10,872 bases of DNA from Candidatus Sulfobium sp. (GTDB lineage Bacteria; Nitrospirota; Thermodesulfovibrionia; Thermodesulfovibrionales; UBA6898): positions 100,551 to 111,422 of the forward strand of contig JARRRI010000003.1 of the NCBI GenBank assembly GCA_037380845.1. The letters are read 5' to 3'. The position numbers and the translations under genes were made by a program. Positions 1,819-10,872 of this stretch are shown here, piece by piece; position 1 is the first letter of the stretch; each line of letters opens with the position of its first letter. The notes below the pieces were generated by a model. It was given only the letters and a program-made list of their open reading frames with translations, was not told the origin of the DNA and ran no database searches.

Positions 1819-3024
1819 GTGGCCGAAGTTTATCATGCGCTGGGACTCAATATGCATCAGCCCCTCGGGAATCTTCTGGCCCTCCACAACTCGGATGAGG
1901 CGTGGGAGGCACGGCAGATCCTCTGGTGTTATGACCGGCCCACCCGTATGCTGGAGGGATATGAGGATATCGCCAGACTGCACATGAGTTTCTCCGGTAC
2001 TCTCCTGAAACAACTGGAGGATCCGGCCGTCAGGGAGACCTTTCACGATGTGGTCGATATAGAGGATTTCCTCGCCAGGTACAGGAAATCCGGTATCGAG
2101 TTCGTGGGTACCGGTCTTTATCATCCGGTCTATCCGCTGACACCTTCCTCAGACTGGGATGCGCAGACCGAATGGTGGATAGGTCTGGGGAAGCATCTCC
2201 TGGGGCGCGAGAATTTTCAGGGGTTCTGGCCGCCCGAGATGGGCTTTTGCATGGAAATGATCCCGATGCTGAAGCGGCACGGCTACAGGTATGTGCTCGT
2301 CGATTCCTGGTACATCAAACCGAAAAGAGAAATGAGGTGGGAGGAATTGCGCTACCGCCCTTATATAGCCCGGTATGGCGGAGAAGAGATAGTCGTCGTC
2401 CCCAGGGACAGGGAACTTTCGGATTCACAGGAATCCGGACTCGACCCGGGCTGGTTTCAGCACGAGGTCTACGAAAGGACCAAGTGGTGCGATTTCCCCG
2501 CTCTTGTCACCACATGGACCGACGGCGAAAACGGGGGATGGTTCCGGACGGCCCACCTTGAAAGCGGCTTCTGGGGCTATTTTTATCACACCATCCTGAA
2601 CAGATACAGGGAGGGCACCCTCGGCTTTACACCCGTGCATATCAGTGACTACATCGACAGATACCCTCCTGCCGAAGAGGTTGACGTCCACCGGGGGGCA
2701 TGGAATACGGGACACCACTGGGGAGGCGATTTTACCCAGTGGACAGGTTCACTCCTTCAGAAGAGAGGCTGGGACGAAATACGAAATGTCAGCGCATTCT
2801 ACCAGGAGGTAAGAAAGACCTTTGATAAGCGGAAGGAGGGTGCAGCCGACCCCGAAGATATCCGCCAATTGATCGTAAAGGCATACGACCGCATATTGGT
2901 TGCGGAAACCAGCTGCAACTTTTACTGGGGGAGCCGCTGGGTCCACCGCTCCTTTGACGATATCGAACAGGCGTACCACCTTCTCGATACCGCCATGGAG
3001 AGGCTGAAGGCCGGCGGGGAATAG
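1819..3024 (+). CDS. Glycoside hydrolase family 57 protein
   Basis: GH57 conserved regions: MHQP, YHP, FWPPEMG (nucleophile Glu), TDGENGGW (acid/base Asp), AETSCNFYWG. GTG start with upstream GAGGTAGGA. Confidence 0.9.
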   Translation: MAEVYHALGLNMHQPLGNLLALHNSDEAWEARQILWCYDRPTRMLEGYEDIARLHMSFSGTLLKQLEDPAVRETFHDVVDIEDFLARYRKSGIEFVGTGLYHPVYPLTPSSDWDAQTEWWIGLGKHLLGRENFQGFWPPEMGFCMEMIPMLKRHGYRYVLVDSWYIKPKREMRWEELRYRPYIARYGGEEIVVVPRDRELSDSQESGLDPGWFQHEVYERTKWCDFPALVTTWTDGENGGWFRTAHLESGFWGYFYHTILNRYREGTLGFTPVHISDYIDRYPPAEEVDVHRGAWNTGHHWGGDFTQWTGSLLQKRGWDEIRNVSAFYQEVRKTFDKRKEGAADPEDIRQLIVKAYDRILVAETSCNFYWGSRWVHRSFDDIEQAYHLLDTAMERLKAGGE

Positions 3025-8597: not shown

Positions 8598-8736
8598 TTT
8601 CGGCGGATAACCTTTCCCCGGAAACAGCGGCGTGCCGCATTATGCATGCCGCCCCTGCCGGGCAAAGAGAGAAAGCCGGGAAAGACTCAGAAATATCCGA
8701 AACTTCCAGGGGCGGGCGCAGAACATGAATAGTGAC

Positions 8737-8742
8737 TATAAT
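8737..8742 (+). promoter_or_regulatory. -10 box 6 nt upstream of the coaE ATG (leaderless configuration)
   Basis: Perfect TATAAT at 8737-8742, ATG at 8749, no SD. Confidence 0.55.
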
Positions 8743-8748
8743 AGATAC

Positions 8749-9351
8749 ATGTTCATCACAGGACTGACCGGAAACTACGGGATGGGCAAGAGTTTCGTTC
8801 TCTCGCTGTTCAGGGACCTCGGCGCCATTACAATCGATAGTGACCGGATCGTCGACGGGCTCCTGAGAGAGGGAAAAGTCGTAAGCGATATGAAAAAACT
8901 GCTGGGCGAGGATGTACTGGACAGGGAAGGCAGACTGGACAAGAAGGCGGTCGCGCAGAGAATATTCAGTGATCCGGCTTCAAGAAGAAGCGTTGAGGCA
9001 TTACTCCATCCTCTGGTACTTGAAAGGGTAGACCATCTCGTCCAGGGCGTGAAAGACGCAAACCGGTTTGTCGTGGTGGAAATCCCTCTCCTTTTCGAAG
9101 GCAATTACGGCGACCGGTTCCGGAAGACCATGACCGTCTTTACATCCGAGGAGACAGCCCTTGAGAGGCTGGAAGCAGAGGGGGTTCCCCGCCGGGAGGC
9201 CCTGCTCAGGCTGAATTCGCAGATGCCGATCGACCGCAAAAAGGAACTGGCGGATTACATAATCGACAATAACGGCAACATGGAGGAGACCCGGGAGCGG
9301 GTAAAGGAGTTATACAACTCTCTGATAAAGGATATGAAAAAACAGAATTAG
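8749..9351 (+). CDS. coaE: Dephospho-CoA kinase
   Basis: GLTGNYGMGKS P-loop, IDSD, LDKK..IF, LLHPLV, VEIPLLFE, RLNSQM, ADYIIDNNG. ATG 8749 matches the family N-terminus. Stop overlaps the convergent priA stop. Confidence 0.95.
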   Translation: MFITGLTGNYGMGKSFVLSLFRDLGAITIDSDRIVDGLLREGKVVSDMKKLLGEDVLDREGRLDKKAVAQRIFSDPASRRSVEALLHPLVLERVDHLVQGVKDANRFVVVEIPLLFEGNYGDRFRKTMTVFTSEETALERLEAEGVPRREALLRLNSQMPIDRKKELADYIIDNNGNMEETRERVKELYNSLIKDMKKQN

Positions 9352-10872
9352 ACCGGGTCTACATCGATCACAACCTTCGGCCCCCTGACGTTTCGGGTGA
9401 TGCCCGTTATCTTCTTTGCCGCCGCTCTGAGCAGTCTCTTGTCTCCCGATTTGAGAAGAAACGTGACCCGCTCCTCCCCTTTCCTGTCCTTGTCGATCAC
9501 CGGCCCGAGCACCTCCACATTTTTCCCTGCCCGCAGGACCAATTCTTCCGCCCGCGGGACGTCTACGCCGCCCGAAAATGTTATCTGGAGCAGCCTGGAA
9601 TAGGGGGGATAATGCATGTTCTTCCTTACGGCCAGTTCTTCCCGCACAAAGGAGAGATAATCGCCCTCCCTGAGATATCTGAAAACCGGGGTCCCGGGAA
9701 ACCGCGTCTGTATGACCATCTGTCCCCCCGGCCCGAGGAGTTCGCCTATCGATGCCAGTTCCATATAGGTCTTTTCTGAAGACCTGAAGTCCGGGATGTT
9801 CAGGGAAGCATCTATATTAAGAACCACGGCCAGACCGAATTTTTCAATCTCCAGCCTCTTCGTCATCATCCTCGTACCCACTACCACCTTTGTCGAATCT
9901 TTCGATATACTTCTCAGGATCTCGGCAACTTCCGAGCGCTTCTTCACTTCATCGCTGTCGAACCTGAGGGCCTCCGCGCCCAGAAGCACCTCTATTTCTT
10001 CCTGCACTTTCTGGGTGCCGTAACCGGCAAGTCTGAGTCGGTGGCCGCCGCATTTTTCGCACTTCCCGGGGATATCCCTGGAGACGCCGCAGTAATGGCA
10101 TTTAAGGACTTTTTCCTTCTTATGAAGGACGAGCGGGATATCGCATGAAGGGCAGCGCTCGGTGTGTCCGCAATCCTCGCACAGGAAAAGGGTGGAATGG
10201 CCCCGCCTGTTGATAACAAACATCACTCGCTTACCCAGGCTTAGCCTGCTCCTGGATATATCGAGAGCTGTTTTCGAGATGCCGGGGCTGGCCTTTTTTT
10301 CGAATTTCATGTCGACGGTCCTTATCTTCGGACGTTCCGCCCGCATCCGGGGCCTTATAAAAGAGTATTTCCCCGAGAGGGCATTAAAGTAAGAATCTAC
10401 CGAGGGCGATATGGACGTCAACATTACCTTGCATCTCTCCATATAGCCCCTCATAACAGCCGCATCCCTAATGTTAAATCTGATACCCTCCTCGCGTTTA
10501 TATGAACTGCCGTGTTCACGGAGGACCATGATGACGGATATATTGGGCATCGGGGCAAAAAGGGCCAGGCCCGTGCCGACTACCACATCGTGAGTTCCTG
10601 CCAGTATCCTCCTGATGTATTCCGATCGCCTGCCTCCGGTAATCCCCGCATGAAGGACGCACAGTCTGTCCCGAAATCTGTCCGCAAGAGCACCCGCCAG
10701 CGTGTTTGCACGGGAGATTTCCGGGAGTATGACGAGTATGTTCCTGAGGCCCGTCCCGAGAAGCGCCCGAACGAGCGAGTACTCGTAAGTCGAAGAGGGG
10801 GCATGGACAAGAAAAGTGTGGTACCGCTTTTCTGAAAGTGTCCCCGTTATATCCGATATATCTTCTTCGGGG
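9348..10872 (-). CDS. priA: Primosomal protein N' (PriA), 5'-truncated at the window edge, with degenerate helicase motifs
   Basis: Frame stays open upstream of 10586 to the edge (..LVILPEIS..VLHAG..VVVGT..FAP..EHGSSYK). Also NRRG, four CxxC pairs, GTQK, PDFRSSEK, IQT, YPPY, VLGP, IDVDP. Confidence 0.95.
   Translation of the reverse strand, partial: PEEDISDITGTLSEKRYHTFLVHAPSSTYEYSLVRALLGTGLRNILVILPEISRANTLAGALADRFRDRLCVLHAGITGGRRSEYIRRILAGTHDVVVGTGLALFAPMPNISVIMVLREHGSSYKREEGIRFNIRDAAVMRGYMERCKVMLTSISPSVDSYFNALSGKYSFIRPRMRAERPKIRTVDMKFEKKASPGISKTALDISRSRLSLGKRVMFVINRRGHSTLFLCEDCGHTERCPSCDIPLVLHKKEKVLKCHYCGVSRDIPGKCEKCGGHRLRLAGYGTQKVQEEIEVLLGAEALRFDSDEVKKRSEVAEILRSISKDSTKVVVGTRMMTKRLEIEKFGLAVVLNIDASLNIPDFRSSEKTYMELASIGELLGPGGQMVIQTRFPGTPVFRYLREGDYLSFVREELAVRKNMHYPPYSRLLQITFSGGVDVPRAEELVLRAGKNVEVLGPVIDKDRKGEERVTFLLKSGDKRLLRAAAKKITGITRNVRGPKVVIDVDPV

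Follow-up and report, generated by a model that had tools for sequence, protein, structure and literature searches.

PriA recognises abandoned replication forks and starts the reloading of the replicative helicase DnaB. In this work the priA gene at the end of a 10,872-nucleotide (nt) stretch of Candidatus Sulfobium DNA (phylum Nitrospirota; contig JARRRI010000003.1, positions 100,551 to 111,422; hereafter the window) was analysed, and its product was found to lack the residues with which PriA binds and hydrolyses ATP. The closest described system is the PriA of Deinococcus radiodurans, which according to the available sections of the original report is without ATPase and helicase activity and binds single-stranded DNA, fork DNA and DnaB; in the PriAs of Deinococcus-Thermus the catalytic lysine is replaced by arginine within a GKT-type box that is itself retained (Lopper, Boone & Morrow 2015, PMC4504706). 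A 2018 review, as far as its accessible text goes, calls the helicase activity of PriA conserved 'except in Deinococcus', describes E. coli PriA as an active 3'–5' helicase with a winged-helix domain that works with PriB, DnaT and PriC, and notes that E. coli cells with the priA300 (K230R) allele differ little from wild type (PMC5778457). These two publications, the second citing the first, were the only accounts of a motor-dead PriA found, and none was found for Nitrospirota or other lineages, in a literature search that had subscription journals outside its reach. The concept of a PriA pseudohelicase has been in print since 2015, and what is described here is not a new kind of system. The window gene probably encodes an ancient, selected PriA, dead as an ATPase by the state of its motifs, that would recognise forks and help to load DnaB, and represents a new lineage of the Deinococcus type of pseudohelicase.

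The coding sequence, read from 10871 down to 9351 on the minus strand, comprises 507 stop-free codons followed by a stop at 9348–9350. Its product scored 343.7 bits against the priA equivalog model TIGR00595 (cut-off 230.35), matching model positions 26–509 of 509, and 42.4 bits against the PriA zinc ribbon PF18319 (cut-off 26); it fell below the higher cut-offs of the PRK05580 sub-models. With phmmer, residues 32–430 aligned to E. coli PriA (8fak, 9zbu and 6dcr) and to Klebsiella PriA (E 2e-64). On these matches the gene at 9348–10871 is assigned as priA, with the following features:

9348..10871, minus strand: 3' part of the priA coding sequence, 507 codons and stop (TIGR00595, phmmer, translation)
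10782..10805, minus strand: Walker A (P-loop) position, reading HAPSSTYE, without Gly-Lys-Thr (alignment, translation)
10512..10523, minus strand: Walker B position, LREH for DEEH, with the Asp and first Glu gone and Glu-His kept (phmmer)
10497..10517, minus strand: EHGSSYK, aligning to the aromatic-rich loop region of E. coli PriA, retained (phmmer alignment)
10401..10415, minus strand: motif III position, SISPS against SATPS (alignment)
10050..10181, minus strand: Cys-rich zinc region with all eight Cys, residues 231–274 (PF18319, translation)
9849..9878, minus strand: motif V position, GTRMMTKRLE against GTQMxAKGHD (phmmer, beneath E. coli GTQMLAKGHH)
9738..9761, minus strand: motif VI position, ELASIGEL against QxAGRAGR, both Arg gone (phmmer, beneath E. 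coli QVAGRAGR)
9354..9605, minus strand: PriA C-terminal domain, ending in DVDP (PF18074, below cut-off; TIGR00595 to model position 509)

The Walker A signature GxxxxGK[ST] is absent from the window protein, in which the position reads FLVHAPSSTYEY, the stretch directly before the phmmer-aligned part, in place of the GxxGxGKT loop. The acidic pair of the Walker B DExH is missing as well, with VLREH lying beneath E. coli VIDEEH in the phmmer alignment, and neither arginine of the motif VI QxxGRxGR remains. The four CxxC pairs (two zinc sites) are present in the second RecA-like lobe, and the protein keeps PEI, EHGSSYK, NRRG, PDFR and DVDP along with all eight cysteines; the name aromatic-rich loop for the EHxxSYK region follows the consulted part of PMC5175346. 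Searches with the Pfam families DEAD, ResIII and Helicase_C returned no match up to E 0.1 in the window protein or in its nearest full-length relative of 634 amino acids (aa). A first-pass annotation, made from the letters and open reading frames (ORFs) alone, had listed the altered strings for Walker A, Walker B and motifs III, V and VI, an intact frame of about 507 codons and the retained elements (eight Cys, PEI, EHxxSYK, NRRG, PDFR and DVDP). Translation confirmed every one of these, and the phmmer alignment to E. coli PriA placed the altered strings of Walker B and of motifs V and VI at homologous positions. A true GKT motif upstream of the window, a possibility raised by the same annotation, can be set aside because the TIGR00595 match starts at model position 26 with the Walker A stretch unmatched, which places the Walker A position within the window.

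To follow this state across relatives, 46 PriA loci of the same order, the window's own included, were read stop to stop; they fall under 13 family codes and were aligned with 49 PriAs of the phylum outside this order. The order was taken to be Thermodesulfovibrionales from the nearest named records, which are metagenome-assembled genomes (MAGs) labelled Candidatus Sulfobium (77% identity), 'Thermodesulfovibrionales bacterium' (76%) and 'Nitrospirae bacterium' (49%). Within the order GK[TS] was found in 0/45 sequences, Asp-Glu at the Walker B position in 3/46, GRxG in 0/45 and the eight cysteines in 46/46, denominators below 46 reflecting two fragments without the region concerned. Eleven other families of the phylum carry each of these four features in 40/40 PriAs, and because the columns are invariant there, the motif loss is not due to chance. 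Two further families, f23 and f26, resemble the order, with GK[TS], Asp-Glu and GRxG each in 0/7 and the eight cysteines in 7/7. Wider sampling of the class added 20 PriAs, drawn from eight families that do not belong to the order; 18 were fully canonical and two, from family f29, partly degenerate. With two PriAs from the earlier alignment included, 20 of the 22 in sister orders are canonical, which places the loss on the stem of the order as a whole. The first-pass annotation had attributed the state to this lineage, which it does characterise; it is not specific to it.

A PriA match was obtained in 123 of the 127 other genomes of the order; the remaining four are 92–99% complete, and one congener (89% complete) likewise gave none. 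Relatives have full-length ORFs of 611–805 codons stop to stop. Among the best 150 matches to representatives of 50%-identity clusters, 48 were without GK[TS] and GRxG (seven of them fragments without one of the two regions), 99 were canonical and 3 mixed; the 25 best were all degenerate. The two f29 proteins differ from one another, with L150 reading QLAEKVG at motif VI with Walker A intact and L151 reading HIRPGIRKREI at Walker A with motif VI intact, and may represent motor loss in progress. In family f17 the PriA match is split at about query residue 250 in two genomes of one genus, one with a TGA inside, and in a third genome it is in four pieces (G076:C2:114592-116149; G120:C9:91677-93252; G108:C21:132002-133531); a frameshift, a disrupted gene or recoding may lie behind these splits.

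The distribution of change within the protein was assessed on an alignment in which 125 columns reach 90% conservation or more among the phylum's 42 canonical PriAs, a column being counted as kept when at least 80% of the degenerate sequences share the residue and as lost at 20% or less. The degenerate order keeps 56 of these columns and loses 34, and 25 of the 34 lie in or beside motifs Q/I, II, III, V and VI (counted manually from the column table). The lost positions comprise a Gln some 20 residues ahead of Walker A that does not vary among canonical PriAs (a candidate Q motif), Walker A itself, the Asp and first Glu of DEEH, two positions of motif III, the Gln and Gly-His-Asp of motif V, and the Gln, Gly and both Arg of motif VI. 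Those kept comprise the eight Cys, PEI, the Glu-His of DEEH (E119 100%), the Tyr-Lys of EHxxSYK (Y124 96%), R135, R141, NRRG, PDFR..E, Pro-Pro 422–423 and the terminal Asp-Pro. The column pattern is that of a targeted erasure of the nucleotide chemistry in an otherwise preserved protein, and not of general decay. The stretch replacing Walker A is itself fairly conserved among the degenerate PriAs, with the consensus FLxHAPSxxxEYS (Ser26 72%, Glu30 85%; reference positions).

Selection on the gene was estimated as the ratio of nonsynonymous to synonymous substitution rates (dN/dS) by the Nei–Gojobori method. Against two congeners the window gene gave 0.18 and 0.15 (dS 0.76 and 1.01). Ten degenerate pairs (eight in the order, two from f23/f26) gave 0.12–0.25 and eight canonical pairs of similar divergence 0.07–0.23; since the two ranges are alike, the constraint is of the same order as that on working PriAs. 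No second priA was detected in the genome by profile search with TIGR00595, the weaker matches being Mfd, RecG and UvrB, and a PF17764 match on contig C58, considered as an extra PriA, proved to be RicT. The selective maintenance proposed in the first-pass annotation is borne out by these ratios together with the presence of a single copy and the near-universal occurrence in the order, and neither a canonical paralogue nor neutral evolution of this copy, which it had named as the alternative, was seen.

A gene tree was calculated from 82 PriAs of the phylum with the motif columns removed, leaving out the fragments L027, L034 and L060 and 10 further rows of family f19; Deinococcus sequences were not included. 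The 44 same-order rows form one clade with a support of 99 in the Shimodaira–Hasegawa-like approximate likelihood ratio test (SH-aLRT), and within it the families group together, as expected for vertical descent. The rows of f23 (L087, L090, L095, L098 and L106) and f26 (L096 and L101) form a clade of their own (support 100), nested among canonical rows behind branches of 83–94. Their PriAs are longer (753–820 codons stop to stop), and the sequences that stand in for the motifs are quite unlike those of the order. In an approximately unbiased (AU) test on a 34-row subset, joining all degenerate rows was not rejected (log-likelihood difference 0.10, p 0.49); as the test cannot reject this topology, the independence of the order from f23/f26 rests on the canonical sister orders between them, the unrelated replacements and the differing lengths. 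Families f23 and f26 are probably a second clade with motor loss within the same phylum. The same kind of argument, together with the different Walker A state described in the available part of the Deinococcus report, makes an origin separate from that of Deinococcus-Thermus likely. The independence claimed in the first-pass annotation is to that extent upheld, as a probable reading of a degenerate clade inside a phylum whose PriAs are otherwise mostly canonical. PriA diverges faster than DnaB in these genomes, with identities of 77% against 95% within the genus and 32–52% against 59–83% across the order.

The fold was predicted for the nearest full-length relative, 634 aa from its ATG (L008:1501-3402, minus strand) and 77% identical to the window protein, which carries the 3'-end binding domain PF17764 (59.4 bits, residues 6–99), the zinc ribbon and the C-terminal domain. 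An AlphaFold2 model built with an alignment of 36 degenerate PriAs reached a predicted local distance difference test score of 89.9 and a predicted template modelling (TM) score of 0.90. In a Foldseek search of the PDB the nine best matches of this model were PriA chains (TM 0.69–0.80), which supports for this relative the overall PriA fold of two RecA-like lobes, zinc region and C-terminal domain; 8fak_H aligned with E 2e-51 and TM 0.79/0.78, and the next family, Mfd, followed at E 4e-11. The winged-helix deletion of E. coli PriA, 6dcr_A, scored 0.78/0.77, so that the model matches it as well as full PriA. In the model strand 1 (146–150) is joined to a helix (154–165) by a loop of 3 residues, so that the phosphate-binding loop seems to have lost length in addition to being substituted; in the MAFFT alignment the length difference falls behind the helix instead, leaving the exact position of the deletion uncertain. 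The modelled linker from the 3'-end binding domain (6–99) to lobe 1 (from about 145) is short and would leave no room for a winged-helix domain. A tie between motor loss and loss of this domain was considered and rejected, as canonical PriAs of the sister orders are equally short (659–749 codons stop to stop), which makes the short linker a feature older than the motor loss.

Set beside the Deinococcus protein, as portrayed in the available text, the window protein is likewise an orthologue of PriA in which Walker A and B are poorly preserved and which is retained as the PriA of the cell, and DciA is encoded in both organisms. It differs in that the entire Walker A loop is replaced and seemingly shortened and motifs V and VI are erased too. 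The organism belongs to another phylum, canonical PriAs occur in its sister orders, and its state is known from sequence and predicted fold. The lineage is a new one of the known PriA pseudohelicase kind, older and more thoroughly degenerate. With E. coli PriA (8fak, 6dcr, 9zbu) and that of K. pneumoniae (4nl4) it shares the family, the fold, the zinc-binding Cys-rich region, EHxxSYK, NRRG and PDFR; unlike E. coli, this genome yielded neither DnaT nor PriC, PriB not having been searched for. The priA300 allele is the laboratory counterpart of this natural state: according to the 2018 review, its product is dead as an ATPase and helicase, and restart is nevertheless supported. The allele is, however, a single engineered substitution that depends on PriB, whereas here several motifs have been lost naturally and PriC, DnaT and DnaD were not found.

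The genome encodes DnaB (578 bits) and DciA (65.6 bits). PriC, DnaT and DnaD-type domains were not found in the assembly, which is rated 100% complete. The best IstB/DnaC-type match is a 461-aa ORF at 39.7 bits. Across the phylum DciA was detected in 143 of 151 genomes, in lineages with degenerate and canonical PriA alike, and a different helicase loader as compensation was rejected on this ground. DciA scores are 36–66 bits in 27 same-order genomes and mostly 66–94 in other families; they are low too in family f24, which has canonical PriA, so that the scores do not follow the state of PriA cleanly. Co-folding of the window PriA with its own DnaB gave a score of 0.00, a result without bearing on whether the two bind.

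Judged by the parallels of E. coli priA300 and D. radiodurans PriA, the window protein may serve in fork recognition and recruitment without being a motor. PriA would have lost the residues for ATP binding and hydrolysis at the root of the order and kept the fold, the zinc region, the aromatic-rich-loop residues, NRRG, PDFR..E and the C-terminal domain, and in the full-length relatives the 3'-end binding domain also. The 3'-end binding domain, the DNA-contact loops and the zinc region would bind the abandoned fork, PriA serving as a landing platform to which DnaB is then brought together with DciA. Duplex on the lagging arm would be cleared by other enzymes, for example RecG or the UvrD-family helicases, which are present in the genome (four of the latter of 661–709 codons and one ORF of 998 codons). 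The recG gene, like priA, is broken by the assembly, with the N-terminal 438 aa on C101 (2374-2691) and the C-terminal 247 aa on C50 (169-432).

Several observations weigh against this interpretation. Loss of the ATPase is read from motifs, and the 'scaffold-only' PriA of the first-pass annotation is what those motifs suggest: a protein that would be unable to hydrolyse ATP or unwind DNA. In E. coli the PriA–PriC route needs the helicase (PMC5778457, in its accessible text), and a 2026 Keck-lab study suggests that its zinc region can swing and recruit PriB only once PriA has unwound a lagging arm that is duplex; since both steps need a helicase, a dead PriA would leave a job unfilled. An extra UvrD/Rep-type helicase as compensation was sought and rejected, with 2–4 matches in 27 same-order genomes and 0–5 elsewhere (matches, not copy numbers); the compensating helicase suggested in the first-pass annotation thus appeared neither as a second priA-like gene nor as an enrichment of the UvrD family. 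No conserved neighbour of priA marks a partner among 15 relatives, in which the upstream genes differ: NifS, AroG twice, CorC-like, RapZ, a response regulator, tetratricopeptide repeat proteins twice, radical S-adenosylmethionine, ClpB, IlvC and four without a match. The C-terminal domain PF18074 scores 21.9 bits, under its cut-off of 26.9. The window protein is also without its N-terminal domain, so that fork recognition by the 3'-end binding domain rests on the relatives.

This truncation raises the question of a decaying pseudogene or an assembly or binning artefact, as the ORF is cut at a contig end in an assembly of 104 contigs. The open frame had been described as reaching the window edge, and this is to be amended: the end of the window is the end of the contig, at which the 5' part of priA is cut. 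Some 127 N-terminal residues, the 3'-end binding domain in relatives, are missing from this assembly, and tblastn with the N-termini of two congeners located none elsewhere in it (best E 1.3). Contigs from two public runs (X1, 19,706 nt; X10, 923 nt) extend beyond position 10872, and since the window ends with its contig and those of other runs continue, the open 5' end is an assembly break. Run X1 may be the source sample, and X10 belongs to another study. The X9 and X10 contigs are at least 99% identical to the window with no difference over the Walker A and B positions, and the sole difference in the other runs' contigs is a C>A at 9950 in X10. With 507 open codons, dN/dS of 0.15–0.18, the same state in 13 families, concordant sequence from independent runs and full-length relatives, decay or artefact is refuted and retains next to no probability.

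Two readings of an intact gene compete with that of a motor-less restart protein. The conservation of the replaced Walker A stretch (FLxHAPSxxxEYS) could mean a new function of the pocket, and PriA might on that basis still hydrolyse ATP through a rebuilt, non-canonical site and remain a motor. The same proteins, however, have lost the Walker A Lys/Thr, the Walker B Asp-Glu and both motif VI arginines, the modelled loop has just 3 residues and none of the Pfam families DEAD, ResIII and Helicase_C is matched; we know of no superfamily 2 enzyme that works without all three elements, and a surviving motor is considered highly improbable. Alternatively, the protein could be a PriA descendant with a changed job, a binder of DNA structures outside restart, with restart accomplished otherwise. 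The much faster evolution of PriA than of DnaB in the same genomes would fit such a change, as would the absence of any known restart partner adjoining priA. Yet it is the sole PriA homologue of the genome, its DNA-contact and zinc elements are kept and its dN/dS lies in the canonical range, while the gap in rate was measured within the degenerate order and may be normal for PriA. A changed job is accordingly held to be unlikely, and an ancient fork-recognising PriA without ATPase activity is preferred.

On this preferred reading the degenerate PriAs would be natural separation-of-function variants, kept under selection of normal strength. They would mark the zinc region, the DNA-contact loops and the 3'-end binding and C-terminal domains as indispensable to the cell, and ATP-driven unwinding as dispensable. 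The phylum holds two degenerate clades, the order and f23 with f26, and partial decay in f29, and it can be proposed tentatively that motor loss is recurrent and tolerated in bacteria of the DciA type and no peculiarity of Deinococcus, and that in the order the former pocket has been rebuilt as FLxHAPSxxxEYS into a possible surface for DnaB, DciA or single-stranded DNA-binding protein. If this more tentative proposal held, fork recognition and helicase recruitment would be the universal job of PriA, and the helicase an accessory that lineages shed. Without a motor, PriA would have to pass DnaB to a loader of the DciA type with no help from PriB, PriC or DnaT. Thermodesulfovibrio is a member of this order. 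No RNA run was among the 15 public runs containing the stretch.

The neighbour of priA in the window is coaE, which is convergent with it, the two ends overlapping by 4 nt; at several loci of the same family an ORF of similar size, known by size and direction only, is also convergent to priA. The adjoining gene and four ORFs without an NCBIfam match at E 1e-5 are as follows:

8632-9351, plus strand: coaE, dephospho-CoA (coenzyme A) kinase (TIGR00152, 126.6 bits)
1819-3024, plus strand: ORF of 401 aa
6191-7384, plus strand: ORF of 397 aa
3065-3397, minus strand: ORF of 110 aa
4636-5067, minus strand: ORF of 143 aa

The other genes of the window are glgA (cut at its 5' end), a desulfoferrodoxin-like gene, YchJ, a family-4 uracil-DNA glycosylase, lgt, a CbiR-like gene and an FmdB zinc ribbon.

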